A DNA stretch of 64,000 bases, taken from positions 73,352-137,351 of the forward strand of contig JACQZH010000041.1 in assembly GCA_016213925.1 (NCBI GenBank), written 5' to 3'. Position 1 is the stretch's first letter, and each line of letters begins with the position of its first letter. The notes under the pieces are model-generated. The model made no database searches and was not told where the DNA came from. It saw only the letters and a program-made list of their open reading frames with translations. Both the position numbers and the translations under genes were made by a program. Source of the DNA: Candidatus Omnitrophota bacterium. GTDB lineage: Bacteria > Omnitrophota > Gorgyraeia > B26-G9. Of this stretch, positions 2 through 17,655 are shown in pieces.

Positions 2-817
2 GAAGGGCTATGGCAAGTTAATGAAACACAGGATGTGTTATCAATAACCATTGATTGGAAAAAAATACCTCTGCGCCAGATCTGGCAAATTAGAAGGATA
101 GAAAACGGATTTAACTGGCTTGTTTATTCGGACGTTAAAGCGCCGCTGAAAATAGAAAAGATAATCGGCGGGATCATGCTTGCTCCGGAATATGAGGAGT
201 GGTTTAATACCGTAGAACAAGGCAGATTCCCGCAATTTAATGAATCGTGGGAGAGTATTTTTTTGCAGGATACTAAAAGTAAAATTATAGGGGTAAAAGC
301 CAATGGGATACTGCCGGCGCTTATTGTAGAGAATTTGCAGCATGGAGAGATATTACTGCAAAATGCTCCGCAGAGCTGCTTAAGCAGGGCTTTACGCGTT
401 GAACTTAAAACACATAATGAGTTATTTGCAGCTAATCGATATAAATCTTTTAACTTGAATTTATACCTGATTTTCGGAGCAAAGAAATGCGAAAATTTTG
501 TTAAGCAGAAAAGCAATCAGCTGCTTAAGTCAAAAGAGCTTGGCGAAGGCAGTTTGCGGCTTAAATTATCCGATTCTTCCGTGCATCTTTTTTGGAATGA
601 TCTGCAGCTAAGCGTAAATCAGGGGCTGCATTCAGCATTGTTGGTCAATAACGAATGGTTTGACTCAAGTAAATGCGATTGGAAAATTGAAAGAATTAAT
701 GATCAATGCATTTATATTGATATTGACTGGAGGCCTCTGCCCGTGAAGCAATCATGGCAGTTAAATATTATCGATGAAAATTCTTTCTCCTGGAAAGTAA
801 AAACGTATTTTAAATAG
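2..817 (+). CDS. Trp-rich repeat-domain protein, 5'-truncated by the window edge; ends at TAG 815-817 but is in frame with the next ORF (probably the same gene)
   Basis: The frame is open from position 2 (EGLWQVNETQDVLSITIDW...). It contains two or more copies of a roughly 110-aa repeat (motifs G-L-W-Y/F-D-S-S...W; IDW..P..Q.W; KAGI.L...Y..WF....G.FP) that recurs in ORFs 839..3409 and 5669..9433. Confidence 0.5.
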   Translation, partial: EGLWQVNETQDVLSITIDWKKIPLRQIWQIRRIENGFNWLVYSDVKAPLKIEKIIGGIMLAPEYEEWFNTVEQGRFPQFNESWESIFLQDTKSKIIGVKANGILPALIVENLQHGEILLQNAPQSCLSRALRVELKTHNELFAANRYKSFNLNLYLIFGAKKCENFVKQKSNQLLKSKELGEGSLRLKLSDSSVHLFWNDLQLSVNQGLHSALLVNNEWFDSSKCDWKIERINDQCIYIDIDWRPLPVKQSWQLNIIDENSFSWKVKTYFK

Positions 818-838
818 GGGAAAACTGATTTAATTAAA

Positions 839-3409
839 ATGCGCTCGCTTGGACTGATTCTAAATCCGCAATATGATAGATGGTTCGGCGGGTACGAATC
901 CGGATTTTTCCCGGCGGAGTTTAGCGGCTGGCGTGAGATGATAGAAGATAAGGAAAACGGCTCGGCTGTAGGAGTTGTCGGTAATGAAAACCTTCCGGCA
1001 GTATTTTTTAAAAATACCGCTGATAATCAGTCAGTGCTTATTGTTCAGAACTCGGATGAAAAGTCAAAAGCCCGGTTTATACAGTCGGTGCTTACAAATG
1101 GAGGAGATATTTCGGGAAAATCTAATAATGAGGCGGATTTTTCCATAGAAATCAGCATTGTTGAGGACAATAGCCGAGTTGCGCAATATCTGGCAAAAAG
1201 GATAGACGAAGAAATTATCAAGAATGGGATTAGTAAGGGAAGTTTGAAATTAATAGCAGACTCCGGGAAAATGCGCACTTTCTGGCAGGGCAGGGAGATA
1301 ACTGCGGATATCGGTTTGCATACGGCAATATGTTCAAGCGGGTATTGGTATGATTCCGGGAAAATGAAGTGGCAATTGGATAAAGTATCGACGGACAAGC
1401 TGCTGATAAAGGTTGATTTTAATCCATTCCCGGCTATACAGACCTGGGAATTATTTCTTGAAGACGAAAAAACTATTTATTGGAATGTTACGATGGAAAT
1501 TTCAAAGCAGGTAGAGATAAGCGAACGCAAAGCAGGGATTATCCTAAATGGCGAGTATAAAGAGTGGTTTAATTCTTTCGAGCAGGGGGAGTTTCCTGAA
1601 CGCTTTACTTTTTGGCATGACATAATCCGCAATCGGGATGGAGAGACTTTCGGGGTTTATCCCGAAAGCGGGCTGCCTGGCGTTATGTTTAGCATAGATG
1701 ATAATCACTTATCGCTAATCCAGAATACGGATGAAAATATTAAAGGGCGTGTTTTTCAAGGGCAGGTAGTGGAAATTGAGCAGACAAAGAAATATTTACC
1801 GCAAAAGTCGCTGGATTATTTTAAAGGGAAAATAAGGCTTGTTGCTGATAAAAAGGAGATAATAGAGCATAAAAAAATTGCGCAGCCGCTTTCTTATAGG
1901 ACAGAGTCAATCTATTTGTATGGAGATTCGAAGGTCTTGCATAACCGTATTGCCAGGTGCGATGAATTCGATGCTAAAATTAAAAAAATCAAAGATTTTA
2001 TTGATCAGGGCATGCCTGTGTCTGTAGTTGTAGGCATTAGCCGTTATAACTTTTTTAAAATTCATGAGATTCTGCAGTTTTTGGCAAATCATCTGGGTAA
2101 AAATGCTGATTTTCGTTCATTTAAGTTATCGGTTTTTCCGCTTAATAAATTACGCAGGAATTTCATTGAGTATCTGGAAGAGCTGAAAAAAATTGCCAAA
2201 AATATCCTTGGCGTGGAATTTGCTTTAGTTGATGAGGAGTTGTTTAATATTATTATTTCGATTGGTTCTCAAGCAGACCAGGGTAATGAACGCCAGCTGT
2301 TAAGGCTTTTGGGAATAATCTCTGAACATGCTTTTATCGGGCCTCAAATCGTCGTTATTGATCCTTACCATAGATGTAATGCCAATTGTATACACTGCTG
2401 GGTGCATACGCCCGGGGTGCATCATTCTAAAGAATATTATGATACAAAGCTTGATTTGAAAAAATTTAAAAGCATCGCGGATGATTTAGCAGAACTAATG
2501 ACTGATCTGATTATTTTCCAGGGCGACGGAGAACCATTGATGAATGATGAATTTTTTGACATGGTTCGTTATGCCAGAGGAAAAGGGATTAAAGCATCTT
2601 TCTTCACAAACGGTATTTTGCTTAATAAAGATATCGCTAAAGAAGTTATTGAGATGGGAGTTGATGAAATCTTTTGCAGTTTGCCGGCAGGTACTGCTGA
2701 TACGTTTGCTAAAATAAATACAAAACAAAAACCTGAAATATTCTTGAAAGTGCTTGATAATCTAAAATATCTTTGCCAATTGAAAAAGAAAATGCCGGTG
2801 AATAAGCCGCGGCTGATTATGACACATGTCATACACAACATGAACGCGCATGAGCTGATTGAGATGGCAAAGAATGATATTGCTATAGGTGCTGATATAA
2901 TGAGGTTTTACCTTATCAGGCTTGATGAGAATATTGAATTTTTAAGATTAAACGCGGAAAACGTTAAAGATGTGAAGCGTTCTTTGCCGCAAATAAAAGA
3001 GATGGCCAAGGGCAAAAGCATTCAACTGCTGGATACAACGGAATTTCAGCTTAGTAATTTTGAGGAAAATACCGGCGCGTGGTCAAAGGATGTCTTCCTG
3101 AATAATGGCTGCACCTTGGGCTGGAATTTTTCTTTAATTCCCGCTTCCGGAGAGGTGAGTTTCTGCTGTCATTTACGTACAGTTGGTTATCTTGAAAAAA
3201 TGTCATTTAAGCAGATTTGGGATTCTCAAGAGTACAGGCAGTTCCGTTATCAGGCAAAATTTTTGAAGAAAAATGCCAAGACTAAATTCTTAAATGGGAC
3301 AACGATGTTTGACGATTACTGCCAGCATTGCGATACGCACCAGGTTATCCGTGATGTCTGGGATCAGTTTAAATTATACAAACTGGAAAAATTTTTCAAT
3401 GAAACATAA
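839..3409 (+). CDS. repeat-domain / radical SAM-SPASM fusion protein (continuation of the preceding ORF, same frame)
   Basis: N-terminus carries about 3 copies of the Trp-rich repeat (GYWYDSGKMKWQL...FPAIQTWELF...KAGIILNGEYKEWF). Radical SAM cluster motif CNANCIHC (CxxxCxxC) and GDGEP glycine-rich motif. C-terminal Cys-rich SPASM/twitch-like region (GCTLGW...SFCCHL...CQHCD). Confidence 0.7.
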   Translation: MRSLGLILNPQYDRWFGGYESGFFPAEFSGWREMIEDKENGSAVGVVGNENLPAVFFKNTADNQSVLIVQNSDEKSKARFIQSVLTNGGDISGKSNNEADFSIEISIVEDNSRVAQYLAKRIDEEIIKNGISKGSLKLIADSGKMRTFWQGREITADIGLHTAICSSGYWYDSGKMKWQLDKVSTDKLLIKVDFNPFPAIQTWELFLEDEKTIYWNVTMEISKQVEISERKAGIILNGEYKEWFNSFEQGEFPERFTFWHDIIRNRDGETFGVYPESGLPGVMFSIDDNHLSLIQNTDENIKGRVFQGQVVEIEQTKKYLPQKSLDYFKGKIRLVADKKEIIEHKKIAQPLSYRTESIYLYGDSKVLHNRIARCDEFDAKIKKIKDFIDQGMPVSVVVGISRYNFFKIHEILQFLANHLGKNADFRSFKLSVFPLNKLRRNFIEYLEELKKIAKNILGVEFALVDEELFNIIISIGSQADQGNERQLLRLLGIISEHAFIGPQIVVIDPYHRCNANCIHCWVHTPGVHHSKEYYDTKLDLKKFKSIADDLAELMTDLIIFQGDGEPLMNDEFFDMVRYARGKGIKASFFTNGILLNKDIAKEVIEMGVDEIFCSLPAGTADTFAKINTKQKPEIFLKVLDNLKYLCQLKKKMPVNKPRLIMTHVIHNMNAHELIEMAKNDIAIGADIMRFYLIRLDENIEFLRLNAENVKDVKRSLPQIKEMAKGKSIQLLDTTEFQLSNFEENTGAWSKDVFLNNGCTLGWNFSLIPASGEVSFCCHLRTVGYLEKMSFKQIWDSQEYRQFRYQAKFLKKNAKTKFLNGTTMFDDYCQHCDTHQVIRDVWDQFKLYKLEKFFNET

Positions 3410-4376
3410 GAACATTACTTTTTTATTCCAAGGAAGAAGGTTTTCTTTAAGCTTGGGCGGAAAACTTTGTTTGCTTGTGATAAGTATTTGTTTTGCGTTA
3501 ATGATTGCTGAGCTTGCAGTACGGGTATTTGTTAAGGTTCCATTGAAGAAAGAGTATATGAGGTTTGCTAGTTTGAATTACGCTTTTATCCCTGAAGCAA
3601 TGCGGGATAAAGAACTGCTTTGGCTGCCGCGCAAGTATATTAGACAGACAAAATATCAAAAAGATAATAATAGTAGGATAATTTGCATAGGGGATTCTAA
3701 TACTGAAGGCCATAGCAGCCTAAGGATAGAGCAAACTTATCCTTATGCATTGGAGAAAATTTTTAAACAAGAAGGGCATAACAAAACGGTTGAAATTATA
3801 AATGCCGGTTCTTCAGGATATAGTTCTTTTCAGGGGCTGGCGTATTTACGCAAAGAAATTTATAAATATGAGCCTGATTTAGTGATTAGCTGGTTTGGAG
3901 TGCAGGATAGTTCCTGCGCCTGGTTTTATGAAGATAAAGCGCAGGATGCCTTAGAATATCCGGATGATAATAATAGTTTAATGAATTCCAGCAGGTTCTA
4001 TTTATTTATAAAAAATTTTTTCTTTTTAAGTGAAACCTTAAGGAAAAAAATTCCGCGTGTTTTGCCGCAAGATTACATGGCTAATTGCCGCGAAATGCTG
4101 AAGATTTCCAAAGAAAAAGGATTTAAAATGGCATTCATTGTGCCGTTTCACTTAGATTTAAAAAAAAATAAGGTTTTTTATTATGAAGAATATAAAGAAT
4201 TATTGTTGTCACTTGAAAAAGAAACAGATTGTTTGATTATAGATGTTGTCCCCTATTTGTTTGGAAAGAATATAAAAGAGTTATTTTTGGATAGTTGCCA
4301 TCCTAGCGGTAAAGGCAATGATTTTATTGCCGGTATTGTATTTAACGATTTGAAACATAAACAGTTGTTTAACTGA
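3399..4376 (+). CDS. membrane-anchored SGNH/GDSL family hydrolase
   Basis: N-terminal TM helix. Block I ICIGDSNTEG (GDS), block III NAGSSGYSS, block V DSCHPSGKGN (DxxH). Start trimmed to ATG 3399, in frame and overlapping the upstream stop by 11 nt. Confidence 0.65.
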   Translation: MKHKNITFLFQGRRFSLSLGGKLCLLVISICFALMIAELAVRVFVKVPLKKEYMRFASLNYAFIPEAMRDKELLWLPRKYIRQTKYQKDNNSRIICIGDSNTEGHSSLRIEQTYPYALEKIFKQEGHNKTVEIINAGSSGYSSFQGLAYLRKEIYKYEPDLVISWFGVQDSSCAWFYEDKAQDALEYPDDNNSLMNSSRFYLFIKNFFFLSETLRKKIPRVLPQDYMANCREMLKISKEKGFKMAFIVPFHLDLKKNKVFYYEEYKELLLSLEKETDCLIIDVVPYLFGKNIKELFLDSCHPSGKGNDFIAGIVFNDLKHKQLFN

Positions 4377-4406
4377 AAATAAGCGTTGAAAAATTAAAAA
4401 TTTCCG

Positions 4407-5396
4407 ATGAGATTGAGATTTGCTTTTGGCAGGCATAAATATAGAGTCAAAAAAATAACACTGGTTTTTTTGTTTGGCACAGCTTTATTAGCAGCGTTAT
4501 TTTTAAGCGAGATCTTGGTCAGGTGTTTGTTTTCTTTTCCCGAAAGGGGATTTTATTTTAAATTCCGCCATATTAAAAATTTTTATATACCGCAAAGATT
4601 ACTGGATGGGGAATTATTTTGGAAGCCAAAACCTGAATTCCTAGGCTTAAAGTACGCGGAAAAAAAAGGCGATGGCGTTTTTCGGATTATTTGTATCGGA
4701 GATTCGGTAACGCAAAGTTATGATATTTCAGGCAGGCCTCAACCGCTAAAACAGACTTATCCCTATCAGTTGCAGTCTTTGCTTGAACGAATTATCGGTA
4801 AAGGCAGGGTTGAGGTTTTAAATGCCGGGATTGGAGGGTACAGTTCTCTTCAGGGACTTAGGTATTTACAGCGCAGTTTATGGAAATATAATCCGGATTT
4901 AGTGATAAGCTGGTTTGGTGTAAATGACCATAGTTTGGCTTTATTCTATCCGGATAAGGAGCAGCGGCTGTTTGTGAGTGCTGATATTAGGAAAAAAAAA
5001 TTACTTGAAAACAGTGCGTTATTTCTTTTTTTGAGGAATGAATTTTTTATAAAAAAAAAGCAGCGCGTGTCACCTGCTGAATATTTTGCTAATTGCGAGC
5101 AAATGGTGTTATTGGGAAAGGAAAAAAAATTTAAAATAATTTTTATCGCGCCATTTGAATATGAAAAAAAAATAAAGCGGGCAAATTATTATGACGAGTA
5201 TAAGCATGTATTGGAACTTTTGGCGGTAAAATATAATATAAGGGCCTTCGATATTTTACCGGCAGTTTGCATGTCTACGGATGCGGGCAATGTTTTTATA
5301 GATAATTGCCATTTTAATCCGGATGGCAATGCTATTGTTGCCAAGGCGATTTTTAATTTTTTGAAAGATGAGGAGTTTATACAAAGGTTAAAATAG
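4407..5396 (+). CDS. membrane-anchored SGNH/GDSL family hydrolase (tandem paralog of 3399..4376)
   Basis: ICIGDSVTQS, NAGIGGYSS, DNCHFNPDGN; N-terminal TM helix. Contains three A9 homopolymer tracts. Confidence 0.65.
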   Translation: MRLRFAFGRHKYRVKKITLVFLFGTALLAALFLSEILVRCLFSFPERGFYFKFRHIKNFYIPQRLLDGELFWKPKPEFLGLKYAEKKGDGVFRIICIGDSVTQSYDISGRPQPLKQTYPYQLQSLLERIIGKGRVEVLNAGIGGYSSLQGLRYLQRSLWKYNPDLVISWFGVNDHSLALFYPDKEQRLFVSADIRKKKLLENSALFLFLRNEFFIKKKQRVSPAEYFANCEQMVLLGKEKKFKIIFIAPFEYEKKIKRANYYDEYKHVLELLAVKYNIRAFDILPAVCMSTDAGNVFIDNCHFNPDGNAIVAKAIFNFLKDEEFIQRLK

Positions 5397-5684
5397 ATGA
5401 AAATTTTACTTGTTAATTTACCTTGGAAAAATGCTGATAGATGGGGAGTGCGTGCCGGATCGCGCTGGCCGCATATAAAGGACGCGACCGAAGAAAATTA
5501 TCTGGCTTTTCCGTTTTATCTTGCGTATGCCGCGGCGCTATTAAGAAAAAATGGTTTTGATGCAGTGATTATTGACGCGATAGCGCAACGGCTTTCCTAT
5601 GGTGATTTTTTAAAAAAAACTGAAGAACTAAAGCCTGATTTGCTGGTTGCGGAGACGTCTACAGTACCTTGCTTGAGCTTGTAA
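5397..5684 (+). CDS. N-terminal half of a B12-binding domain; fragment of the disrupted fusion gene that continues in another frame at 5669
   Basis: MKILLVNLPW...LAYAAALLRKNGFDAVIIDA...KPDLLVAETST matches the start of B12-binding radical SAM proteins. It stops at TAA, and the downstream ORF continues the same family alignment in frame +2. Confidence 0.4.
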   Translation: MKILLVNLPWKNADRWGVRAGSRWPHIKDATEENYLAFPFYLAYAAALLRKNGFDAVIIDAIAQRLSYGDFLKKTEELKPDLLVAETSTVPCLSL

Positions 5685-8600
5685 AAGCGCTTGAAAATAA
5701 TAACCCGCTGGGAACAGTGCAAGGGCTTATTTACCGTAATAAATCAGATGTGGTAAAAAACTCGCCGCGTACTTTAATTGCCGATTTGGATCAATTGCCC
5801 TGGCCGCTTCGCGAAGGATTGCCGGTTAAGCGTTACAATGATGCTCCGGGGGATATTCCTATCCCTTGCGCTTCAATGTGGGCAAGCCGTGGATGCCCGT
5901 TTGGCTGTTCGTTCTGTCTTTGGCCGCAGGTAATGTACGGGGGTAATTCTTACCGCGTGCGCAGCGTAAAAAACGTAGTTGATGAAATGGAGTATCTTAT
6001 AAAAGAGTTGGGATTTAAATCCGTATATTTTGATGATGATACCTGGAATATCGGTTCTGAAAGGATTATTGCTTTTTGTGATGAACTGGAGCAAAGAAAA
6101 TTGAATGTGCCGTGGGCAATTATGGCAAGAGCAGAATTGATGAATGAGTATTTACTCGAAAGGATGCGCAAGGCAGGATTGTATGCGGTAAAATACGGGA
6201 TTGAATCATCTTCGCAAAAGATCGTTAATGATACCGGAAAGAGGCTTAATCTTGAAAAAGCGGAGGAGATGATAAGGTATACGAAGTATCTGGGGATAAA
6301 GACTCATTTAACGTTTACTTTTGGATTGCCCGGAGAAACGCAGCAAACAATTAATGAAACAATAGAATATGCTTGCAGGCTTAATCCTACTTCAGTGCAG
6401 TTTTCTCTGGCAACGCCTTTTCCCGGGACAAGATTTTACGATGAAATGGAGAAAAAAGGATATATAGTCTCAAAAGATTTAGAAAAGCTTGATGGTAATC
6501 ACAGCAGCGTGATCAGAACGCAAAGCCTTAGCGCCCGCGAACTGCAGCAAGCGAAGAAAAAAGCTTATATAACTTGGAATAGGCATTGCCGGTTTAAACG
6601 GCAAAGGCTAAAATTTCCTCAAAAAACTATAAAGGAAAAATTTGACGCTTCATTGCTGGAATACGGGTTATTTTATACAACAATGAAAATTTTGCGTTAT
6701 ATTTTGAGGCGTTTGCTGATTATCCCGTGGAAAATCCGCAGCTTTTTTAATGCAAATCTCTGGATTATAGAAGAAATTATAACTGCCGGGAATATTTCGA
6801 TTAAGTTCGGCGAAGGGCAAGTGCGCGTATACTATAATAATATAGAAATTTCAAAAGGGATCGGGATTACGGCTTCATTTTATTACGGAGAACGTTGGTT
6901 TGATTCTTCTCGGGCTAACTGGAAGCTTGAGAAAGATTCAGAGAAAAGCATAAGAGTTAAATTGACCTGGGATGATATCCCCATACGGCAATCATGGACA
7001 ATTTTGATTGGTGAAGAAGGGAAAATAAGCTGGAATAGCAAGCTTCAAGTACAAACTGCAGTACAGCTGCTTGAGTATAAGGCTGGAATCATGCTTCAGG
7101 AGCAATATACTAGATGGAAAGATGAACTTGGTGTTGGAAATTTCCCGAAAATAACTCAATGGGAAGAAATTGAATTATATAACGCTAATTCCCGCAGGCT
7201 TTTTGTTTTTAAAGAGGCTGCGGAAAGTAATAGCCAGATGCCGGAAGTCGAATTAGCGCTGAAAACAGCAAACAGGCCAAACATATATCCGCAGATACAA
7301 AATACTGATATAAAAACGAATGCTCGGATTATTCAGATGCGCAGTTTGCGAATTGAGCAGTTTGTCCCGGGAGAATATGCATATTTTGATCTGGAAATAT
7401 TTTTGCATAAAAAAAACTTGATAGCGCAGAATGTATCTGCGCTTAAGAAAAGAACTCCTTTAGGAATAATTAAGGCGCAGATTGCTCAAAATGGGGCTTC
7501 TACGGTGCTGCGTAAAATTATTAAAAACCTGCATCCGGTAAAACTTTCGGATTATTATACGGATATTGTCGGAGTTATGGACGGTTCCTATGCGTATAAG
7601 GGGCCTTATTGCGTGCAAATCGATCTGACCAACGATTGTAATAACGATTGTGTCGGCTGCTGGTGTAATTCACCGCTTTTGAAAGAGCGAAAAATCAGCA
7701 AGGAGATAAAGCAGCAGGCATTACCTTTGGATGTAGTGAAAAAAACAATTGATGATTTGGCGCTAATGGGAACTAAAGAGATATATTTTGCCGGAGGCGG
7801 AGAGCCGTTTATGCATGCGCATATTATGGAGATACTTGAATATGTCAAAGCTAAAGGATTAAAGTGTTATATAAATACAAACTTTACGTTGGTAACCGAA
7901 AATATGGTTAAACGGCTTGTGGAGATTGGAGTTGATCATTTGGTTGTAAGTGTATGGGCAGGAACTGCACAGACATATAAGCTTACGCATCCCAATAAGT
8001 CAGAAGAGATGTTTTATCAGATAAAAGGGATGTTAAAGCTGCTTAATTCTTTAAAGGACAATGTGCCGCAGGTTAATGTGTATAACATTATTTTTAACCG
8101 GAACTTTAAAGAATTGCCGCAGATGGTTGATTTCGCGCTTGAAGCCGGAGCCGATTCACTTGAATTTACGGTTATTGACACGATCCCTGAAGCGACGGAT
8201 ACACTGATTTTGGACGAAGGACAACGTTTACAGGTTTGCGGTGATTGTGAGAATATTCAAAAACGTTTGGAAGGTGAGCTTAAGGGAAAGATAAAAATTC
8301 TTCAGTTTGAGCAATTCTTGCGCCGCGTGAATAATAACGCCGCGCAAAAAGCTGAATATGATGATAATATTCTCGCGGAAATACCGTGTTATATCGGTTG
8401 GATTTTTGCCCGGATACTTGCTGACGGAAATGTTAACTTTTGCCTGAAAGCGCATCGTATTCCGGTGGGGAATATTTACGCGCATTCTTTTTCGCAAATC
8501 TGGAATAACCGCAAGCAACAGGAATTCCGTATAAGAGCACTGTGCCAGGAAAAAACCGATCCATTTTTTTCGTTTATTGGGAATGATCCGAATGTTCAGG

Positions 8601-9433
8601 TAGGTTGTTTTAAGGGCTGTGATGACCTTGCGAGGAATATCCGTATGCATGAAAAAATTCAATCGTTAACACGACCGGAATTTATTTTTTTGCGCATTGT
8701 GCTTATTTTAAAGAAAATGCTGCGTTTATATCGGACAAAAGCGCTTTCCAGCACGTTTAAAAAACGGTTACAAACAACTAAAAGGAAGCCTATACTTTCT
8801 TCCGGTAAACTTAGTATTGATTGCTGTGAAGACGGGATTAAACTTTACTGGGATGGTAAAGAGTTGACAGAAAGCGTGGGATTAAATACTTCAGTGTGCG
8901 TATATGGTTTATGGTATGACTCTTCAAGAGCTGAATGGGAAATAATGGGAAATTCTCATGCAAGATGCGTAATCCGTAATACTTGGAAAAATATTCCGGT
9001 TTCACAGCTATGGACGATTACAACGGATAATGATAATCTTATAAAATGGGATGTAAAGATGATTGTAGATACAAGAATTGATATAGAAGAAAGTAAAGCA
9101 AGCATAATCCTCAATTCCCGATATAAAAAGTGGATTGCCGGAGATGATCTTGGGTTCTTTCCCCGGGAAATGTCTTGGAATGAAGTTCAGATCCCCGGGA
9201 AAGCGGTTAAGAACATAGGAGTTCAATCAGTAAAAGATAAAGACTGGAAATTTCCTTCTGTGCAGATTATCTTTTTGGAAAAACAGGAAGGTGTTAAACC
9301 TCAATTGCAAAATGCCGGTAAAAAGATAAATGCGCGGTTATTGTCCGTACGCAAAGCTTCTGAAGATGGAGAAACAATATATCTGCCGGGAGAACATGAT
9401 ATCTTTTCACTGCAAATTAAAGTGATGGAATAA
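5669..9433 (+). CDS. giant multidomain fusion: (B12-)radical SAM + Trp-rich repeat + second radical SAM-SPASM + Trp-rich repeat
   Basis: First radical SAM: RGCPFGCSFC. Repeat: YYGERWFDSSRANWKLE...IPIRQSWTIL...KAGIMLQEQYTRW. Second radical SAM: CNNDCVGC, GGGEPF, then Cys-rich SPASM-like tail (NFCLKAH...CQEK...GCFKGCDD). C-terminal repeat: GLWYDSSRAEWEI...IPVSQLWTI...KASIILNSRYKKWI. The ORF-track start is TTG; the true start is uncertain. Confidence 0.7.
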   Translation: MLELVKALENNNPLGTVQGLIYRNKSDVVKNSPRTLIADLDQLPWPLREGLPVKRYNDAPGDIPIPCASMWASRGCPFGCSFCLWPQVMYGGNSYRVRSVKNVVDEMEYLIKELGFKSVYFDDDTWNIGSERIIAFCDELEQRKLNVPWAIMARAELMNEYLLERMRKAGLYAVKYGIESSSQKIVNDTGKRLNLEKAEEMIRYTKYLGIKTHLTFTFGLPGETQQTINETIEYACRLNPTSVQFSLATPFPGTRFYDEMEKKGYIVSKDLEKLDGNHSSVIRTQSLSARELQQAKKKAYITWNRHCRFKRQRLKFPQKTIKEKFDASLLEYGLFYTTMKILRYILRRLLIIPWKIRSFFNANLWIIEEIITAGNISIKFGEGQVRVYYNNIEISKGIGITASFYYGERWFDSSRANWKLEKDSEKSIRVKLTWDDIPIRQSWTILIGEEGKISWNSKLQVQTAVQLLEYKAGIMLQEQYTRWKDELGVGNFPKITQWEEIELYNANSRRLFVFKEAAESNSQMPEVELALKTANRPNIYPQIQNTDIKTNARIIQMRSLRIEQFVPGEYAYFDLEIFLHKKNLIAQNVSALKKRTPLGIIKAQIAQNGASTVLRKIIKNLHPVKLSDYYTDIVGVMDGSYAYKGPYCVQIDLTNDCNNDCVGCWCNSPLLKERKISKEIKQQALPLDVVKKTIDDLALMGTKEIYFAGGGEPFMHAHIMEILEYVKAKGLKCYINTNFTLVTENMVKRLVEIGVDHLVVSVWAGTAQTYKLTHPNKSEEMFYQIKGMLKLLNSLKDNVPQVNVYNIIFNRNFKELPQMVDFALEAGADSLEFTVIDTIPEATDTLILDEGQRLQVCGDCENIQKRLEGELKGKIKILQFEQFLRRVNNNAAQKAEYDDNILAEIPCYIGWIFARILADGNVNFCLKAHRIPVGNIYAHSFSQIWNNRKQQEFRIRALCQEKTDPFFSFIGNDPNVQVGCFKGCDDLARNIRMHEKIQSLTRPEFIFLRIVLILKKMLRLYRTKALSSTFKKRLQTTKRKPILSSGKLSIDCCEDGIKLYWDGKELTESVGLNTSVCVYGLWYDSSRAEWEIMGNSHARCVIRNTWKNIPVSQLWTITTDNDNLIKWDVKMIVDTRIDIEESKASIILNSRYKKWIAGDDLGFFPREMSWNEVQIPGKAVKNIGVQSVKDKDWKFPSVQIIFLEKQEGVKPQLQNAGKKINARLLSVRKASEDGETIYLPGEHDIFSLQIKVME

Positions 9434-9434
9434 A

Positions 9435-11084
9435 ATGCAAAAGATTATATTAGTTAACACTCCTCCATGGGGAACGGCAATGCCTCCATTAGGAGTGGCT
9501 TATTTAGCTACTTATTTAAAGTCAAAGGGAATAGATATTGATACTTTTGATTTGAACCTTGAATTATTTTTAAATTCCGGGGATAAGGAAAAAGTTTTTT
9601 GGGGGCTTGACGCAATAAATAAAATTCCGGTACAAACGATTGCAAATAATATATTTTCAAGTTTTATGCCGTATTTAGAAAAATTTTTTTCTTTTACGGC
9701 AAAATATGATCTTATCGGTTTTTCGGCAAATAATCTTATTAGCACGACTTTTGCCGGAATTCTGGCTGAACATATAAGAAAACGCTATCCTGAAAAAATA
9801 ATTATTCTTGGCGGGCCGGGATGTTTTCATAGTTGGGATAGGAGCGTAGTGCCACAGGGAAGCGTTGATTTTTTTGTTATAGGCGAAGGAGAAGAGACCT
9901 TGCATCAGCTTATTTGCGTTTTACGTTCCGGTATTGATAAAAATGGGGGTTCAGAACCTATTCCCGGAGTAATTGATAATAGAACAGGAAAAAAGCAGCG
10001 GTTTATTCCGCGAAGAGAGATTAGAGACATTAATAGTATCCCCCATCCGACATTTGAGGAATTTTCATTTACAAAGTACGAAAGTTTTCCTGGATATCAT
10101 CCTTTGCCTATGCTTATGAGCCGTGGCTGTATAAATGAGTGCAGTTTTTGTATTGACTGTTATATGAGTTCGCCGTTTCGTATGCGTGCTGCCGGCAATA
10201 TCGTTGAAGAAATAAAATATCATAAAAACCGTTATGGAATAACTCATGTGGAGTTTAATGACCTGCTTTGTAACGGCAACATATATCAATTGGAACAGTT
10301 TTGTGATTTGATGATCAGGGAATCTTTGGATATCCGCTGGATAAGTTATGCGGCAGTGCGCAAAAACATGAGTGAAGATTTACTTAAGAAGATGAGACAG
10401 GCTGGTTGTACTTCTTTATGCTACGGGCTTGAAAGCGGATCGGATAATGTGTTGAAAAAGATGAATAAACATTATGGCGCATCTGATGCGGCAGAACTGA
10501 TTAAAAAAACAGCAGCGGCGGGAATAGAAGTTAGAATTAATATTATAGTTGGTTTTCCCGGGGAAACTGAACGGGATTTTGCCCAGACACTTACTTTTAT
10601 CAGGGAAAATAAAGATTATATCAGGCAGGTGACCAATGTTTCTTCTTTTGTTTTAATGCCGTCAGCTCAGTTGGCAATTACTCCGCATCGTTATGGGATT
10701 AGTTATTTAGATTCGGATGATTTAGGCAAGTGGACAGACGATAACCGGCTAACGCAGGATGAACGCAATAACCGCGTAAAAAAAACATGCCGGTTACTAG
10801 CCGAATTGCAAATAGATAACCTTATTATTAATTTACAGGAACCTGTCTGCAAGGATGGTGATCGTGGCGTTTTGCACGCGGCAGGTGAAAAAAATAATAT
10901 TAGGGAAGAAACAAAAGAGAATATTTGCGCTAAAGCAGTGTTTAAGGAAAAAAAATACCGGCGGGAAAATAAACTTTTTAAATTTTTAGTATTAGCAGGC
11001 TTATTGCTTTTTAGTGTTATTGCTGACCTGTATTTATTCATCATAAAAAAAATTAGAGGGTCAATAATTTTTCCTGGAAGCTGA
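9435..11084 (+). CDS. B12-binding radical SAM protein with C-terminal TM helix
   Basis: N-terminal B12-binding-like domain (IILGGPGCF...FFVIGEGEETL); radical SAM SRGCINECSFC; C-terminal hydrophobic helix. Confidence 0.7.
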   Translation: MQKIILVNTPPWGTAMPPLGVAYLATYLKSKGIDIDTFDLNLELFLNSGDKEKVFWGLDAINKIPVQTIANNIFSSFMPYLEKFFSFTAKYDLIGFSANNLISTTFAGILAEHIRKRYPEKIIILGGPGCFHSWDRSVVPQGSVDFFVIGEGEETLHQLICVLRSGIDKNGGSEPIPGVIDNRTGKKQRFIPRREIRDINSIPHPTFEEFSFTKYESFPGYHPLPMLMSRGCINECSFCIDCYMSSPFRMRAAGNIVEEIKYHKNRYGITHVEFNDLLCNGNIYQLEQFCDLMIRESLDIRWISYAAVRKNMSEDLLKKMRQAGCTSLCYGLESGSDNVLKKMNKHYGASDAAELIKKTAAAGIEVRINIIVGFPGETERDFAQTLTFIRENKDYIRQVTNVSSFVLMPSAQLAITPHRYGISYLDSDDLGKWTDDNRLTQDERNNRVKKTCRLLAELQIDNLIINLQEPVCKDGDRGVLHAAGEKNNIREETKENICAKAVFKEKKYRRENKLFKFLVLAGLLLFSVIADLYLFIIKKIRGSIIFPGS

Positions 11085-11140
11085 AACAGCGTTTAGAGAT
11101 TAGCGGGCAGCGATTAGATAAAAACAAAAAGGATGTAAAA

Positions 11141-12316
11141 GTGAAGATATTGATGGTTCATCCGCATGATTTATTTTCTAAAAAAGAGCCGTGGACAACA
11201 CGTATAAGAAATATCGCGCTTGAGTTTAAGAAAAAAGGGCATGATGTTAAAGTTGTTTATTTTCCTTTGGAGTATAAGGGGTTCGAGAAAAGGTTCTTTT
11301 TGAATGATATTGAGTTTATCCCTTTGAGCCGCCGAGTTGGAATAATGCCGTTAGCGCAAAATATCCGTTTTCTTTTTAAAGAATCAAAATGGGCAGATGT
11401 AATCCATTTTCAAAAATGTTTTTACTATGCGGCGTTGCCGGCGCTTATTGGCGCGTTTTGCAGTGAAAAACCAGTGCATTACGACTGGGATGACTGGGAA
11501 ATAAAAATATTTCATTATAGCGCGAAGCAGCCATGGCTTATCGGGATTTTTTTAGCAGCATTGGAACGCTGGATTCCTTGCCTTTGTGATACGGTTTCTG
11601 TCTCCAGCATTCGTTTGAGGGAAGAATGTCTGCGTTATGGAATATCAGCCGAATCTATTGTCATGGCTCCGGTTGGTGCGGACCTTGATTTATTTAATCC
11701 GGCGGTTTCCGGAGTGCGTATCAGGGAAAGATTTAATATTAAAGGCCAGTTAGTAAGCTATCTTGGGCAATTGCATGGGGGCCAGTATGTGGAACAATTT
11801 ATTAGGGCTGCAAAAATAATACTTAATAAAATGCCCCAAACAATATTTATGATTATTGGCGGGGGATACCAGCTTGATGCTTTAAAGAAAATGGCGGATA
11901 GCTTGCAATTGAGTGAAAAATTAATATTTACTGATGCTGTTCCCCATAGGGAAACTGCTCAATATATCGCTGCTGCTGACGTAACAGTTGCTTGCTTTGA
12001 AGATAATGATATAACCCGTTGCAAGAGCCCGCTTAAGATTGCTGAATATCTTGCCAGCGGTAAACCGATTGTAGCTAGTGATGTCGGAGAGGTTAAACGG
12101 ATGCTTGCCGGCGCAGGGATTGTAACAGCTCCGGCAGACCCTGAAGATTTGGCTGCTGGAATTATAAAAATTCTGGAAGATGAGCCGTTAAGAAAAAAGA
12201 TTGCTTTGCATGCGCGAAAAAGAGCAGAGGACATTTATAATTGGAAGAATACTGCGGATAATCTGCTTTTCGCATATCAAAAGGTGTTTCAGTATAAAAA
12301 AGGTAAAGAGGAATAA
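11141..12316 (+). CDS. glycosyltransferase family 4 (GT-B)
   Basis: C-terminal EX7E-type motif KSPLKIAEYLASGKPIVASDVGE; GT4-like length and layout. GTG start per ORF track. Confidence 0.65.
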   Translation: MKILMVHPHDLFSKKEPWTTRIRNIALEFKKKGHDVKVVYFPLEYKGFEKRFFLNDIEFIPLSRRVGIMPLAQNIRFLFKESKWADVIHFQKCFYYAALPALIGAFCSEKPVHYDWDDWEIKIFHYSAKQPWLIGIFLAALERWIPCLCDTVSVSSIRLREECLRYGISAESIVMAPVGADLDLFNPAVSGVRIRERFNIKGQLVSYLGQLHGGQYVEQFIRAAKIILNKMPQTIFMIIGGGYQLDALKKMADSLQLSEKLIFTDAVPHRETAQYIAAADVTVACFEDNDITRCKSPLKIAEYLASGKPIVASDVGEVKRMLAGAGIVTAPADPEDLAAGIIKILEDEPLRKKIALHARKRAEDIYNWKNTADNLLFAYQKVFQYKKGKEE

Positions 12317-13493: not shown

Positions 13494-15182
13494 ATGAATA
13501 TATTAGGGATTTGCGACAGTCAGGATGCAGGCGCAGTATTGTTTGATACTGTTAATAATAGTTTTACTGCAGTGAACGAAGAAAGGCTTTGCCGGATAAA
13601 ACTTAAAGGCGGATTTCCTAAAGAATCAATTAGGGAAGTTCTTAAGTTAAAGAATCTAGAGGCCTCTGATATCGACGTAGTTGCGATAGCTTCTTATATG
13701 ACGCCGTCTTGTGTTTTTAGAGCAATTCCGGAAATTCATGAGAATCTTAGAAAAGGGAGAAAACAGTTTAGTCTCTTATTATCAATATATATCTTATACC
13801 AAGTTTTTGCGCACAAGACGAAAATTGCCGAATATTTGGAATCCTGGTTGTCAAAAATTATCATCAGATGGAAATTGAAAAAGATCGGGATAAAATCAAA
13901 GGTTGTTATTATCGAGCATCATAGCGCGCATGCGTATGCCGCGTATGCTACTTCAGGAACAAATAAAGCTCTAATTTTCACAATTGACGGGTTAGGTGAT
14001 GGGGTAGCTTTCACGGTTAATATCGGCGAAGGCGGAAAAGTTAAACGAATATATGAGCAGAGCGCTTTTTGTGGTATTACATTATATTATTCCAGATTAA
14101 CAGAATTTTTGGGATTCTTGCCTATTCAGGATGAGGGGAAAGTGATGGGTTTGGCTGGTTACAGCAGCGAATATCCTGTTTTAGCGCAAGCACGAAAGCT
14201 GCTTGGAATTACGGCAAAAGGGTTTAAATATAGAAATATATTTTTTAATTTTTCAAAGGATAAGAAGGTTTTTAACGGGCTTAAGAACAGGAAGAAAGAA
14301 GAAATCGCTGCTTCGTTCCAATTTTATCTTGAGCAGAAATTAGGCGAGATAGTGCGATATTGGGCGAGAAAGACGCAAATTTATGATGTAGTGCTTGGCG
14401 GCGGATTTTTCGCGAATATTAAAGTAAATCAAAAAATAGCTGAATTAGAAGAGGTTAAGAGTGTGTATGTGTATCCGCATATGGGAGACGGAGGGCTGGC
14501 GTTAGGTGCTGCGTGCGCTTTAAAAAAAATAAAGCCGTTTTTTTTAAAAAGTATTTTTTGGGGCCCGTCTTTTACAAATGAATATATCGGCAGTCTTTTG
14601 AAAAAATCCGCTTTTAAATACGAGTTTATAGAAGATATCGAAGCTCATACTGCTCTACTTTTGAGCAGAGGCTATATTGTTGGACGTTTATGCGGGGCTA
14701 TGGAGTATGGCCCCCGTGCTTTGGGGAACCGTTCGATTCTTTGTCAGGCGACAAATACTAAAATTCATGGATTACTTAATAATAAGCTTAAAAGAGATAC
14801 ATTCATGCCGTTTGCTCCGGCAATATTAGCTGAATTCGCACCGCTTTGCTGCGAAGGCGCAGAGAAAGCGGAATATTCTGCGAAGTTTATGAATATGAGC
14901 TTTAAATGCACGGAGTATTTTAAAAAAATTTGCCCCGCGGCTATTCATGTAGATGGGACAACTCGGCCGCAGTTTGTTTGTGAGGATAGCGGCAGTTTTT
15001 ACAAAATTCTTAGCGAATATAAAAAAATAACCGGCATTCCGGCATTAATTAATACTAGTTTTAATATCCATGAAGAACCGATTGTTTGCCGGCCTGAAGA
15101 GGCAATAAAAACATTTATCGAAGGTAATTTGGATTATCTGGTGTTAGAAAATTTTTTAATAAAAGGAGGAAATAATGAATAA
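13494..15182 (+). CDS. carbamoyltransferase (NodU/CmcH family)
   Basis: N-terminus MNILGICDSQDAGAVLFD...NEERLCRIK, HHSAHAYAAY and overall length are typical of O-carbamoyltransferases. ATG 13494 follows a GAGGG RBS. Confidence 0.65.
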   Translation: MNILGICDSQDAGAVLFDTVNNSFTAVNEERLCRIKLKGGFPKESIREVLKLKNLEASDIDVVAIASYMTPSCVFRAIPEIHENLRKGRKQFSLLLSIYILYQVFAHKTKIAEYLESWLSKIIIRWKLKKIGIKSKVVIIEHHSAHAYAAYATSGTNKALIFTIDGLGDGVAFTVNIGEGGKVKRIYEQSAFCGITLYYSRLTEFLGFLPIQDEGKVMGLAGYSSEYPVLAQARKLLGITAKGFKYRNIFFNFSKDKKVFNGLKNRKKEEIAASFQFYLEQKLGEIVRYWARKTQIYDVVLGGGFFANIKVNQKIAELEEVKSVYVYPHMGDGGLALGAACALKKIKPFFLKSIFWGPSFTNEYIGSLLKKSAFKYEFIEDIEAHTALLLSRGYIVGRLCGAMEYGPRALGNRSILCQATNTKIHGLLNNKLKRDTFMPFAPAILAEFAPLCCEGAEKAEYSAKFMNMSFKCTEYFKKICPAAIHVDGTTRPQFVCEDSGSFYKILSEYKKITGIPALINTSFNIHEEPIVCRPEEAIKTFIEGNLDYLVLENFLIKGGNNE

Positions 15183-15957
15183 AGAGCAAAAGCAAAGAAA
15201 ACGTAATTTTTTAGAATGGCTTTTTGAAGAGGTGGATGAAGATGAAAAAGATTCGGATAAAGAAGGTGAATATGAAATAGAGATATCTCTAGGGCAGATT
15301 ATCGCAATAATTGTTATTACTTTGCTCTTTGTTTTCTGGATTATTTTTAGTTACACGAAGAATCCTGGAGTTGGATGGGGAAAGATTTCATTTAGCCCTC
15401 AAGGGTATATAGAGCAAAAGATTGAAAAAAATTATTTTCAAGATGAGACGTGTTTAATAAACAGCAATTTTAGCGATGGATTAAAACACTGGGCTACTTC
15501 GGACGGAGGCAGTGTGTTTCCTGACTCAAAGAGTAAGGCAATTCTTGAGAAAAAAGATTTTTATTCTGCTCCATACGCTTTGAAGATTAAAACTATTGCT
15601 CCTGCTAACCGGTATTTTTATATAAAAAAAGATAAATCAGATGTTATAAATAATCCTTATAACTATCTAGAAACTGACCATTGGCTGGGAATTCTGCCTG
15701 GGGTAAAAGTAAGGGGAAGTTTCTGGTATAAGGGAGATATCGTGATGCTTGCGCTAGAAGGACTAACTCATGACGGAAATTGGCAACAAATAAAGGCATT
15801 TACAGGCCCAAAAACAGATGTTTGGAGTAAATTGGAAATTAAAACAGAGATACCTGAAATATGCAGAGCTGTGGCATTGAGTATAACGATAAACCAAGCA
15901 AAGGACATGCCGCTGCCTGAAGTTTTGATAGATGATGTAGAGCTATTTATTGAATGA
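15175..15957 (+). CDS. hypothetical membrane-anchored protein (acidic N-terminus, one TM helix, extracytoplasmic beta-rich domain)
   Basis: AAAGGAGG RBS upstream. Single TM helix (IIAIIVITLLFVFWIIF). I recognise no family. Confidence 0.4.
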   Translation: MNKEQKQRKRNFLEWLFEEVDEDEKDSDKEGEYEIEISLGQIIAIIVITLLFVFWIIFSYTKNPGVGWGKISFSPQGYIEQKIEKNYFQDETCLINSNFSDGLKHWATSDGGSVFPDSKSKAILEKKDFYSAPYALKIKTIAPANRYFYIKKDKSDVINNPYNYLETDHWLGILPGVKVRGSFWYKGDIVMLALEGLTHDGNWQQIKAFTGPKTDVWSKLEIKTEIPEICRAVALSITINQAKDMPLPEVLIDDVELFIE

Positions 15958-15975: not shown

Positions 15976-17655
15976 ATGAAGTTAATAAGTAAAAAAAATA
16001 TTTTATTTTGGCTTTTATTTCTTTTGATATGTTTTCATTTTTTTAACAATATTGCTTGGCTGATCAAGGATCCTTTAGCGACAGGAAAAGACAGTTACGC
16101 GCATTTGACATCTTTTTTGAATTTTAAGCAGATTATCAGTGACGGGAAAACACACCCTTTTTATGACCAAAATAAAAGTTTGTTTTATAACCTGGTTTTT
16201 GGCGTGATTGATTATCCGCCGTTTTTTAATTTTTTTGTTTTTTTGCTGGATTTTCTTTTTGGGCATTTTTACGCAAATGCCGCAATATTTACTTCAACAC
16301 TTGCGTTTTTGATGCTGATTTTTTTGGTTTATAAAATCGGCGAAGTTATTGAGCCAAAAACGGGATTGCTGGCAGCGTTTATCTGTTCTTTTTATCCGAT
16401 GATGTATTATATTTCCCGGCATTTTAATATTGAAATGACTTTGGCTGCGGTAGTTTGTGCGGCAGTTTTATGCTTATTAAAAACTGAATTTTTTGAAAAA
16501 CGCGGTTTTTCAATAGGCTTAGGCGTGATGTTTGGAATAGGCATGCTTACAAAAGAAACATTTATTGTTTATTTGGTCGGGCCATTATGCGTTACTATAT
16601 ACTTTTCTTTTAATAAAGCAGAGCGTTTATTTTGGAAAAAAAGGAGTGTTAATTTATTGCTGGCTTTTTTATGCGCTTTTTTTATCAGCCTGATTTTTTA
16701 TTACAATAAAGGAGTATATGCTAATTTATTTAACAGGTCGCAATTCATAGGCGCAGTGAATAATAGCAATGTTTTTAGTTTTGAACAATTAATTTATTAT
16801 CCAAGTTCATTTAGATTTACTGTAGGAGTATTCTTATCCTGTGTTTTTTGTTATGCTTTAATATTTTTGTCTAAAATTGATAGGTATATTAGAGGTTGTT
16901 TATTATCCTGGATAATTTTTCCGATATTGTTTTTGTCTTTATTTGTCCTTAAATATGCAGAATATATGATTGCTCTTTTGCCAGCGTTAGCTTTGGTAAC
17001 GGCTTTCGGATTGCTGAAATTAAAGAATAAAAAAAATCGCGCTTTAGCAATAATCGGGATGATTATAATAAGCTTTTTGAATTATTATAATTACGGGCGT
17101 CCGAGGTTTTTTTATGATGTGCGCCATTGCGACGAATATAGCTTATACTCATTTGATGGAAAAAAAGACAAAAGTAAATTTGATTCTAACTTATTTGTGA
17201 TTATTGAAAGCCTGGGCAGGCAGGCTGGGACTGTAGGAGTTTTTTACAACCATAGGAATCAATCTTTTAATCATTTTTTTCTGAAAAGGTTATTTGCTTA
17301 TAGCGATAAGAAGGCAAAATTGGTTGATGCATTGCCTTATCCGGTTATTTTCTTTAAGAATCTTGATGTATTTGATAAGTTAATTTTTGTTTCTGATAGC
17401 GAAAAACCATGGTTGGATGAGCAAGGCATTTTAGAATATAAGCAGCAGGTCAATCGTTGTAATTACACAAAATTTAAGATAATAAGCGCAAAGCCAGGGA
17501 AATTGCCTTATGGCGATATTAATACCAGTTGTATTCCGGAAAAATTAGTCAAAAAATTATTTGATTTAAAAGAAAAATATCAATTAGAGCATGTTCTTGA
17601 ATTTCTTGATTTAGGAAAAAGCTGGTATGCTTATTTTTACCGGAGGATTTATTGA
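15976..17655 (+). CDS. polytopic membrane protein, putative GT-C glycosyltransferase (PMT_2/ArnT-like)
   Basis: More than 10 predicted TM helices. The first loop has ...KDSYAHL...HPFYDQNKSLFYNL, resembling GT39/GT83 loop motifs. Weak assignment. Confidence 0.4.
   Translation: MKLISKKNILFWLLFLLICFHFFNNIAWLIKDPLATGKDSYAHLTSFLNFKQIISDGKTHPFYDQNKSLFYNLVFGVIDYPPFFNFFVFLLDFLFGHFYANAAIFTSTLAFLMLIFLVYKIGEVIEPKTGLLAAFICSFYPMMYYISRHFNIEMTLAAVVCAAVLCLLKTEFFEKRGFSIGLGVMFGIGMLTKETFIVYLVGPLCVTIYFSFNKAERLFWKKRSVNLLLAFLCAFFISLIFYYNKGVYANLFNRSQFIGAVNNSNVFSFEQLIYYPSSFRFTVGVFLSCVFCYALIFLSKIDRYIRGCLLSWIIFPILFLSLFVLKYAEYMIALLPALALVTAFGLLKLKNKKNRALAIIGMIIISFLNYYNYGRPRFFYDVRHCDEYSLYSFDGKKDKSKFDSNLFVIIESLGRQAGTVGVFYNHRNQSFNHFFLKRLFAYSDKKAKLVDALPYPVIFFKNLDVFDKLIFVSDSEKPWLDEQGILEYKQQVNRCNYTKFKIISAKPGKLPYGDINTSCIPEKLVKKLFDLKEKYQLEHVLEFLDLGKSWYAYFYRRIY

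Follow-up and report, generated by a model that had tools for sequence, protein, structure and literature searches.

Two damaged carrier genes and their module copies

A stretch of 64,000 nucleotides from a Candidatus Omnitrophota bacterium (contig JACQZH010000041.1, positions 73,352 to 137,351; the whole of it is here called the window) begins with two large genes in which radical SAM-SPASM catalytic cores are joined to copies of a Trp-rich module, and this module, its family and its possible part in the handling of a polysaccharide are the subject here. An initial annotation had a conserved Trp-rich element recurring in the open reading frames (ORFs) 2..817, 839..3409 and 5669..9433, and pairwise BLASTP of the window ORFs bears this out, the copies being 23-31% identical to one another (E = 1e-31 to 7e-4). 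Its unit of about 110 amino acids (aa) and its count of at least seven copies both need revision. Alignment of the window copies shows one Trp-rich module some 213 aa long, the full length of which is already spanned by the consensus string first proposed for the repeat. An hhalign comparison of the profiles of its N-terminal and C-terminal halves shows no relationship between them (probability 1.1%), and so the unit is one domain of about 213 aa and an internal duplication of about 110 aa is ruled out. A profile hidden Markov model (HMM) built from the copies finds five of them in a six-frame scan of the 64 kb (Table 1) and no module outside these five. Trp accounts for 3.2-4.3% of residues in the modules versus 1.3% in the other ORFs. 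No Pfam-A (2025) model covers the modules of the window proteins at E <= 0.1, no NCBIfam (2026) model matches the module, and nothing relevant to it came from a profile search against every PDB sequence, so that at the sequence level the repeat is, as was first supposed, not a described domain.

The first carrier gene is read in two pieces. ORFs 2..817 and 839..3409 lie in one frame and form a single gene interrupted by an in-frame TAG, through which the module alignment continues. The 5' piece is the final 271 codons plus stop of P0001 (HY810_06960, 330 aa, from a "Candidatus Omnitrophica" metagenome-assembled genome), a protein that extends 59 residues upstream of the window and in which module 1, cut by the window start, is whole at residues 20-228. 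P0001, the seven codons 818..838 and ORF 839..3409 together give a protein of about 1194 aa that aligns over 1180 aa, at 54% identity, with P0002, a "radical SAM protein" that is intact (1188 aa) in a different Omnitrophota genome, and in nine genomes the orthologues are unbroken single ORFs of 1179-1217 aa. The residue at the TAG position is Glu or Asp in the nine orthologues, so a single-base change (GAG to TAG, for example) or a read error would explain the stop. Recoding of this codon is rejected, as TAA, TGA and TAG each terminate genes in the window, which therefore uses the standard code, and the orthologues have Glu or Asp there. In ORF 839..3409 Pfam recognises Radical_SAM at residues 509-676 and SPASM at residues 758-811, and no other model in the gene.

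The second carrier gene is also broken, ORF 5397..5684 being its 5' part and ORF 5669..9433 its 3' part, and its domain order is HpnJ-like class-B radical SAM, module 4, radical SAM-SPASM core, module 5. What is lost at the junction is the core of the B12-binding domain (residues 91-140 of the orthologues); eight orthologues run through this point without a break, and the gene-2 orthologues are intact at 1326-1405 aa. Both module-bearing genes are damaged in this genome, and intact orthologues of both are present in nine other genomes. The TAG and the deletion may be real lesions or assembly errors. Pfam places two Radical_SAM stretches and one SPASM in gene 2, and the Radical_SAM and SPASM domains of both carriers score above the Pfam gathering thresholds, with CxxxCxxC motifs present in the orthologues.

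The N-terminal catalytic domain of gene 2 best matches HpnJ (TIGR03471), with 224.8 bits where the cutoff is 577.6, which is similarity and not membership. HpnJ acts on a lipid-linked amino sugar. Unlike HpnJ, the gene-2 domain is fused to modules and to a second radical SAM-SPASM core, it lies in a polysaccharide cluster, and its B12-binding domain is truncated here. The radical SAM-SPASM cores of the two carriers had been taken for paralogues, rightly so (30% identity over 329 aa, E = 7e-41 by BLASTP). Their NCBIfam matches are to distant families only, all far under the cutoffs, and their nearest solved relative is BlsE, a cytosylglucuronate decarboxylase and so a sugar-nucleoside decarboxylase (E = 3.5e-06).

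Table 1. Features of the module-bearing region, in window coordinates
Feature	Position	Strand	Remarks
5' fragment, first carrier gene	2..817	+	Module 1 and N-terminal half of module 2
Module copy 1	11..496	+	HMM positions 45-211, independent E-value (i-E) = 6e-60; first 44 profile positions upstream of window
Module copy 2	548..1189	+	HMM positions 1-212, i-E = 6e-88; spans the TAG at 815-817
In-frame TAG	815..817	+	Inside module 2; nonsense mutation or sequencing error
3' fragment, first carrier gene	839..3409	+	C-terminal half of module 2, module 3, linker, radical SAM-SPASM core
Module copy 3	1238..1876	+	Six-frame HMM scan; copy behind the first structure model
Radical SAM + SPASM catalytic core, gene 1	2363..3271	+	Pfam, E = 1.7e-17 and 3.2e-09
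Two SGNH/GDSL hydrolase genes	3399..5396	+	Pfam; between the carriers; orthologous loci (L007-L015) hold zero to two
Gene-2 5' remnant	5397..5684	+	74% identical to P0012 residues 1-90; weak Pfam B12-binding match; first 90 residues of B12-binding domain
Deletion junction	5660..5672	+	About 150 nt (about 50 codons) lost, frame shifted
Rest of gene 2	5669..9433	+	56% identical to P0012 (1403 aa) residues 141-1398, 1258 aligned columns
HpnJ-like B12-class radical SAM domain	5684..6571	+	NCBIfam TIGR03471 best match, residues 6-301
Module copy 4	6788..7435	+	HMM positions 1-213, i-E = 1e-85
Radical SAM + SPASM core, gene 2	7625..8545	+	Pfam, residues 653-822 and 907-959
Module copy 5	8804..9430	+	Protein C-terminus; copy behind the second structure model; scan end 9439, stop codon excluded
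B12-binding radical SAM gene	9435..11084	+	Pfam; follows gene 2 in every orthologous locus (synteny)

The module family, its domain partners and its loci

An exhaustive HMMER search of 1.84 billion cluster representatives (clusters at 50% identity) with the profile of the window copies returned 617 representatives at E <= 1e-3, 506 of them at E <= 1e-10 and 246 at E <= 1e-30, each protein having from one to nine matched stretches. The family is detectable only by exhaustive HMMER and not by word-index search: in a word-index protein search the window modules retrieved just the window's own protein, and 35 diverse copies retrieved nothing. A locus scan that started from the module region of a single Wzt member likewise gave no relatives, and an alignment of three orthologous module-3 copies led to eight loci in GTDB species representatives.

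Domain architectures were read in the best 150 of the 617 hits, 15 of these being checked with Pfam. The partner met most is an ABC ATPase of the Wzt/TagH type, present in 83 of the 150, of which 81 consist of an ATPase of about 240 aa followed by two to five modules and two carry a radical SAM-SPASM core besides. Any radical SAM domain at all occurs in 17, namely in these two, in nine with radical SAM-SPASM and modules, in four with an HpnJ-like radical SAM domain and modules and in two that combine HpnJ-like domain, SPASM and modules. Nine more are glycosyltransferases of the GT-C (PMT_2) type with two to four modules, one is a sulfatase-family enzyme with modules, and 42 have modules only, many of these being fragments. 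The view that the module is always fused to radical SAM-SPASM enzymes thus holds inside the window only, and arose because just one window had been viewed. One apparently stand-alone two-module protein, P0088, sits on a 1.8-kb contig.

The best NCBIfam models for the ATPases are TagH and Wzt/RfbE, at 197 and 178 bits with the next family at about 110 bits, and the JGI label for such ATPases is polysaccharide/polyol-phosphate export. In two proteins exporter and tailoring enzyme are one chain: P0005 (RKY36779.1, 1856 aa; locus L016, 3516..9086) has a Wzt ATPase, five modules and a radical SAM-SPASM core, and P0103 (1217 aa) the same with two modules. Pfam scans of P0004, P0017, P0066, P0163, P0005 and P0103 report ABC_tran, in the radical SAM fusions also Radical_SAM and SPASM, and in P0004 some sub-threshold unrelated models. 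The Wzt_C profile has no match in any of these six by hmmscan, and the Pfam carbohydrate-binding module (CBM) models have none in the window proteins or in the 15 scanned family members. The carriers are currently labelled "ABC transporter ATP-binding protein", "radical SAM protein", "glycosyltransferase family 39 protein" or "hypothetical". All named NCBI members (about a dozen entries) are Candidatus Omnitrophota/Omnitrophica, and seven of the eight GTDB loci are labelled Candidatus Omnitrophota; the remaining one, L011 (CAYTGV010000010.1), holds a complete syntenic cassette under the label "uncultured Planctomycetia bacterium", and is either from a mislabelled genome or a sign of the family reaching past Omnitrophota.

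Copies at the same tandem position are 38-58% identical across genomes (38-46% for module 2 and 50% for module 4 of the window), against 11-33% between different positions, those on the Wzt of the same cluster included. In L007 for example the Wzt modules (1923..4568) are 11-23% identical among themselves and to the radical SAM modules (10043..12034 and 16144..18792). The arrays are therefore ancient and position-specific and are not recent duplications.

Every locus examined is a polysaccharide-assembly cluster, and no precursor peptides, peptidases or transporters for ribosomally synthesised and post-translationally modified peptides (RiPPs) were seen in the loci examined. A Wzm-type ABC2_membrane gene (258-259 aa) lies upstream of the module-bearing Wzt in L002-L005, L007 and L016, directly adjoining it in L004, L005, L007 and L016 and with one 214-aa gene between in L002 and L003, and the clusters of L004, L005 and L016 also contain a WecA-like initiating transferase. 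The order in L004 and L005 is a family 4 glycosyltransferase (GT4), a WecA-like polyprenyl-phosphate sugar-phosphate transferase, an amine oxidase, Wzm (259 aa) and a Wzt with two modules, and then a fusion of a family 2 glycosyltransferase (GT2) with radical SAM, a radical SAM-SPASM gene, a methyltransferase, a GDSL hydrolase and further radical SAM genes. L002 and L003 hold a carbamoyltransferase, Wzm, a Wzt with three modules, GT4 and several radical SAM genes, and in L016 the fusion P0005 directly follows the WecA-like gene, the amine oxidase gene and Wzm. An amine-oxidase/FAD-family gene is directly upstream of Wzm in three independent loci (L004 7933..9228, L007 1..380 and L016 1436..2725) and seems to belong to the export cassette as a conserved component.

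The two carrier genes of the window belong to a cassette that recurs in the eight GTDB loci. In L007, L009, L012, L014 and L015 a Wzt bearing four or five modules (upstream of the carriers in L009, L012, L014 and L015 too) is followed by four or five small radical SAM genes and then by the gene-1 orthologue (three modules), zero to two GDSL genes and the gene-2 orthologue (two modules), the downstream part being in synteny with the window. L007 reads as amine oxidase, Wzm, a 1144-aa Wzt with four modules, five small radical SAM genes, an unbroken gene-1 orthologue (1188 aa), a GDSL gene, an unbroken gene-2 orthologue (1399 aa), a B12 radical SAM gene and GT4.

Predicted fold and the case for glycan recognition

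An AlphaFold2 model of module 3, made with the window copies as alignment, is all-beta (predicted local distance difference test (pLDDT) 84.5, predicted template modelling score (pTM) 0.82), and module 5, modelled independently, gave a pLDDT of 87.2 and a pTM of 0.85. The predicted fold is that of a galactose-mutarotase-like supersandwich, and similarity to solved supersandwich members is established for it, the sequence identity of the matches being only 4-12%; this match of fold is the one link to anything known, and at the level of sequence a confident match to a known family is absent. Nearly all of the top fold matches are carbohydrate-active, with the GH36-like galactosaminidase 9awt, GH38, domain 5 of GH2 and GH97 joined by polysaccharide lyases, glycoside phosphorylases and aldose 1-epimerases. 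Matches elsewhere are to the P1 domain of YidC, minor capsid proteins of PBCV-1, a chloroplast NDH subunit and a Parabacteroides TPR-domain protein, and no Wzt carbohydrate-binding domain is among the top matches. Set beside these supersandwich enzymes (including PL4/PL26 lyases and GH94/GH149 phosphorylases) and OpgG, the module differs in having no attached glycoside hydrolase or lyase domain and no conserved acid/base pair, and in being arrayed in tandem, here on cytoplasmic proteins of biosynthesis and export.

In 253 full copies conservation is strongest at T22, G26, W37, S40, W45, Q68, W70, L103, Y107, W110, G117, F119, P148, N166, R174, F196 and I200. The set is mostly aromatic or polar uncharged (T22, W37, S40, W45, Q68, W70, Y107, W110, F119, N166, R174), and the motif Y107-F119 lies within and beside a long irregular loop where model confidence is lowest. 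For His, Glu and Asp conservation nowhere exceeds 70% in these copies, and the Glu of column 20 reaches only 66%.

On balance the module is probably a non-catalytic glycan-recognition module of a Wzm/Wzt polysaccharide pathway, docking the exporter and the tailoring enzymes on one lipid-linked polymer. The classical carbohydrate-binding domain of Wzt is C-terminal on the ATPase, has a jelly-roll fold, recognises the capped end of the polymer and is needed for export (PMC9445017, PMC11231755). The new module has its main home at the same C-terminus, on exporter ATPases of the Wzt/TagH type and in two to five tandem copies, and would there replace the classical domain. The same module has been added to other enzymes of these gene clusters, namely to radical SAM-SPASM, HpnJ-like B12-class radical SAM, GT-C and sulfatase-family enzymes, and through it exporter and tailoring enzymes would all be docked on one lipid-linked polysaccharide. 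A choice between substrate recruitment or carbohydrate binding on the one hand and a tethered substrate on the other had been left open in the initial annotation; the former best fits the fold and the contexts, and the tethered substrate is rejected because the module is confidently folded and is found mostly on proteins without radical SAM.

The comparison with Wzt_C cuts both ways. Like that domain in the Wzt of E. coli O9a, Raoultella terrigena and Aquifex aeolicus, the module sits right after the exporter ATPase domain, belongs to the same pathway, with a WecA-like initiating enzyme, glycosyltransferases and Wzm in one cluster, and is predicted to be all-beta and non-catalytic (for Wzt_C see PMC9445017, PMC11231755). 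The Wzt layout, with modules at the ATPase C-terminus, is seen in 83 of the best 150 family members, with Wzm upstream in the loci read for it (L002-L005, L007 and L016), the five copies of the window not being on a Wzt. Unlike Wzt_C, the module matches neither the Wzt_C nor any other Pfam model in sequence, is a predicted supersandwich of about 213 aa where Wzt_C is a jelly-roll with strand-swapped dimerisation, comes in two to five tandem copies where the classical domain is single, and is found also on radical SAM, GT-C and sulfatase-family enzymes; its binding of glycan is presumed.

The location of the carriers seems to favour a glycan as well. In a crude hydropathy scan the GT-C fusions have some 7-13 hydrophobic segments before their C-terminal modules, the sulfatase-family member has a single N-terminal signal anchor with the modules after it, and the Wzt and radical SAM carriers show no hydrophobic segments. 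With modules behind membrane segments or an anchor as well as on cytoplasmic proteins, the module is probably in use on both membrane faces, and the glycan is the one component that occupies both sides.

Several considerations weigh against glycan recognition. Sugar binding cannot be diagnosed from the supersandwich fold, which is also found in YidC P1, in the PBCV-1 minor capsid proteins and in the NDH subunit, and which in many glycoside hydrolases is mainly structural. The conserved residues may form an exposed site or may sit in the core. The divergence of modules within a cluster against their conservation per position fits distinct roles for each position better than multivalent binding of one epitope. 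For the GT-C and sulfatase-family fusions the topology comes from the crude scan just described, and the taxonomic census covers about a dozen named NCBI entries and the eight GTDB loci, with architectures from the best 150 of 617. Both the glycan as ligand and the recruitment of enzymes to it by the module are inferred from fold and context only. Lastly, the position-specific conservation and the fusions fit equally well a role in assembly.

In such a role, the main alternative and one that we regard as rather unlikely, the module would be a protein-protein assembly or spacer domain and would not bind sugar directly: it would either oligomerise into a complex of Wzt exporter and tailoring enzymes, or its arrays would serve as a rigid spacer or chain-length ruler. 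The fold mediates protein contacts in YidC P1, in PBCV-1 P19 and in NDH PnsB2, the classical Wzt carbohydrate-binding domains are themselves dimers (PMC9445017), and the module is common to exporter and enzymes of one cluster, which some lineages fuse. Conservation of 38-58% per position versus 11-33% between positions is what would be expected of fixed structural positions, and the copy number on Wzt varies from two to five. What speaks for glycan recognition over assembly is that the copies on GT-C C-termini and on the signal-anchored sulfatase-family enzyme are probably extracytoplasmic and so out of reach of the cytoplasmic Wzt, that in L002-L005 modules are on the Wzt only, with no module-bearing partner in the stretches read, and that the best-conserved residues are mostly aromatic or polar, as is typical of sugar-binding sites.

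A catalytic module, related to the aldose 1-epimerases and acting like a mutarotase or epimerase on a sugar substrate, would account directly for the fold and is very improbable. Mutarotases depend on a His/Glu catalytic pair, and in the 253 copies no such residue passes the 70% level. The module at about 213 aa is also shorter than the mutarotase chains it matched (269-384 aa), its two to nine tandem copies per protein would be unusual for a catalytic domain, and Pfam Aldose_epim has no match in the window proteins or scanned family members, nor is there an NCBIfam match in the window proteins.

The idea of a module specific to radical SAM-SPASM enzymes, either a tethered peptide substrate or a peptide-recognition element as in RiPP maturases, draws on the presence of a radical SAM-SPASM core in both genes that hold the five window copies and on the fact that SPASM enzymes often modify peptides, but we give it hardly any weight and take it as refuted by the family-wide architecture, with radical SAM domains in only 17 of the best 150 members and an ABC ATPase in 83, by a confident globular beta-sandwich of 213 aa, which resembles a winged-helix element as little as a short or disordered core peptide, and by the loci examined, which are all of the glycan-assembly kind and show no RiPP machinery.

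Glycan recognition does keep a likeness to the recruitment domains of radical SAM maturases, such as the PqqD-like RiPP element, in that a fused non-catalytic domain would bring a radical SAM-SPASM enzyme to a polymeric substrate. The differences are that the module is a predicted beta-supersandwich and not a winged helix, that its presumed ligand is a glycan and not a leader peptide, and that it is not confined to radical SAM enzymes. One may go further, tentatively and with more doubt than for glycan recognition as such, and propose that in Omnitrophota a surface polysaccharide is tailored on its cytoplasmic lipid-linked form by a battery of radical SAM enzymes, with a dedicated glycan-binding family shared with the exporter ATPase so that tailoring and export are physically coupled. 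In some lineages the coupling would be literal, a single chain holding the Wzt ATPase, the modules and a radical SAM-SPASM core, and the coupled arrangement could act as a quality checkpoint, a polysaccharide counterpart of leader-peptide-guided RiPP maturation. In a literature search nothing relevant came up on a link between the mutarotase fold and Wzt, or between carbohydrate-binding modules and radical SAM/SPASM enzymes.

The fold is already known, as is the principle of a recognition domain on Wzt. New are the sequence family, which is without a model in the profile libraries searched, its tandem organisation, the proposed replacement of the classical Wzt domain, and the fusion to radical SAM enzymes, sometimes of exporter and radical SAM together. 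A sizeable domain family of at least 617 clusters at 50% identity is thus without a Pfam or NCBIfam model. If glycan recognition is right, polymer recognition by Wzt would have a second form, structurally unrelated and multi-copy, and one recognition module would have been reused to bring tailoring enzymes, radical SAM enzymes among them, to the polymer. To our knowledge the role of radical SAM enzymes in polysaccharide chemistry is poorly known. In Omnitrophota, almost all of which are uncultured, the module would mark the components of a surface-glycan pathway heavily tailored by radical SAM chemistry, and would flag enzymes likely to act on the polymer instead of on nucleotide sugars.

The rest of the window

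The window as a whole is a single glycan cluster, almost wholly on the + strand, with about 47 genes of which 18 are radical SAM genes. The radical SAM domains number 19, among them nine B12-class genes, the HpnJ-like domain and six with SPASM, a density that is unusual for a polysaccharide locus. Glycosyltransferases are represented by four GT2, two GT4 and five GT-C/PMT_2 genes, and further genes code for a carbamoyltransferase, an AsnB-like amidotransferase, a deacetylase, three SGNH hydrolases, an epimerase and a YfhO-like protein. Gene order in L006, which is on the same contig as L013, agrees with the downstream part of the window up to the PMT_2 genes.

The protein encoded at 41624..44098, 824 aa long, has both a radical SAM domain and a GFO_IDH_MocA domain of the NAD-binding oxidoreductase type. 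Six ORFs, 186-538 aa in length (15175..15957, 22217..23701, 28254..28814, 34650..35519, 47443..49059 and 57099..58157) are without a Pfam match. L006 has at 616..2232 a protein, also without a Pfam match, of the same length as the 538-aa one of the window, matched to it by length only, and at 19799..20578 a 259-aa gene of this kind where the window's 260-aa one would be expected, matched by position and length only. The only sizeable gene on the minus strand, at 51091..52548, codes for a B12-binding radical SAM enzyme; all other genes are on the + strand, and the GC skew is positive (+0.12 to +0.30) throughout the window.

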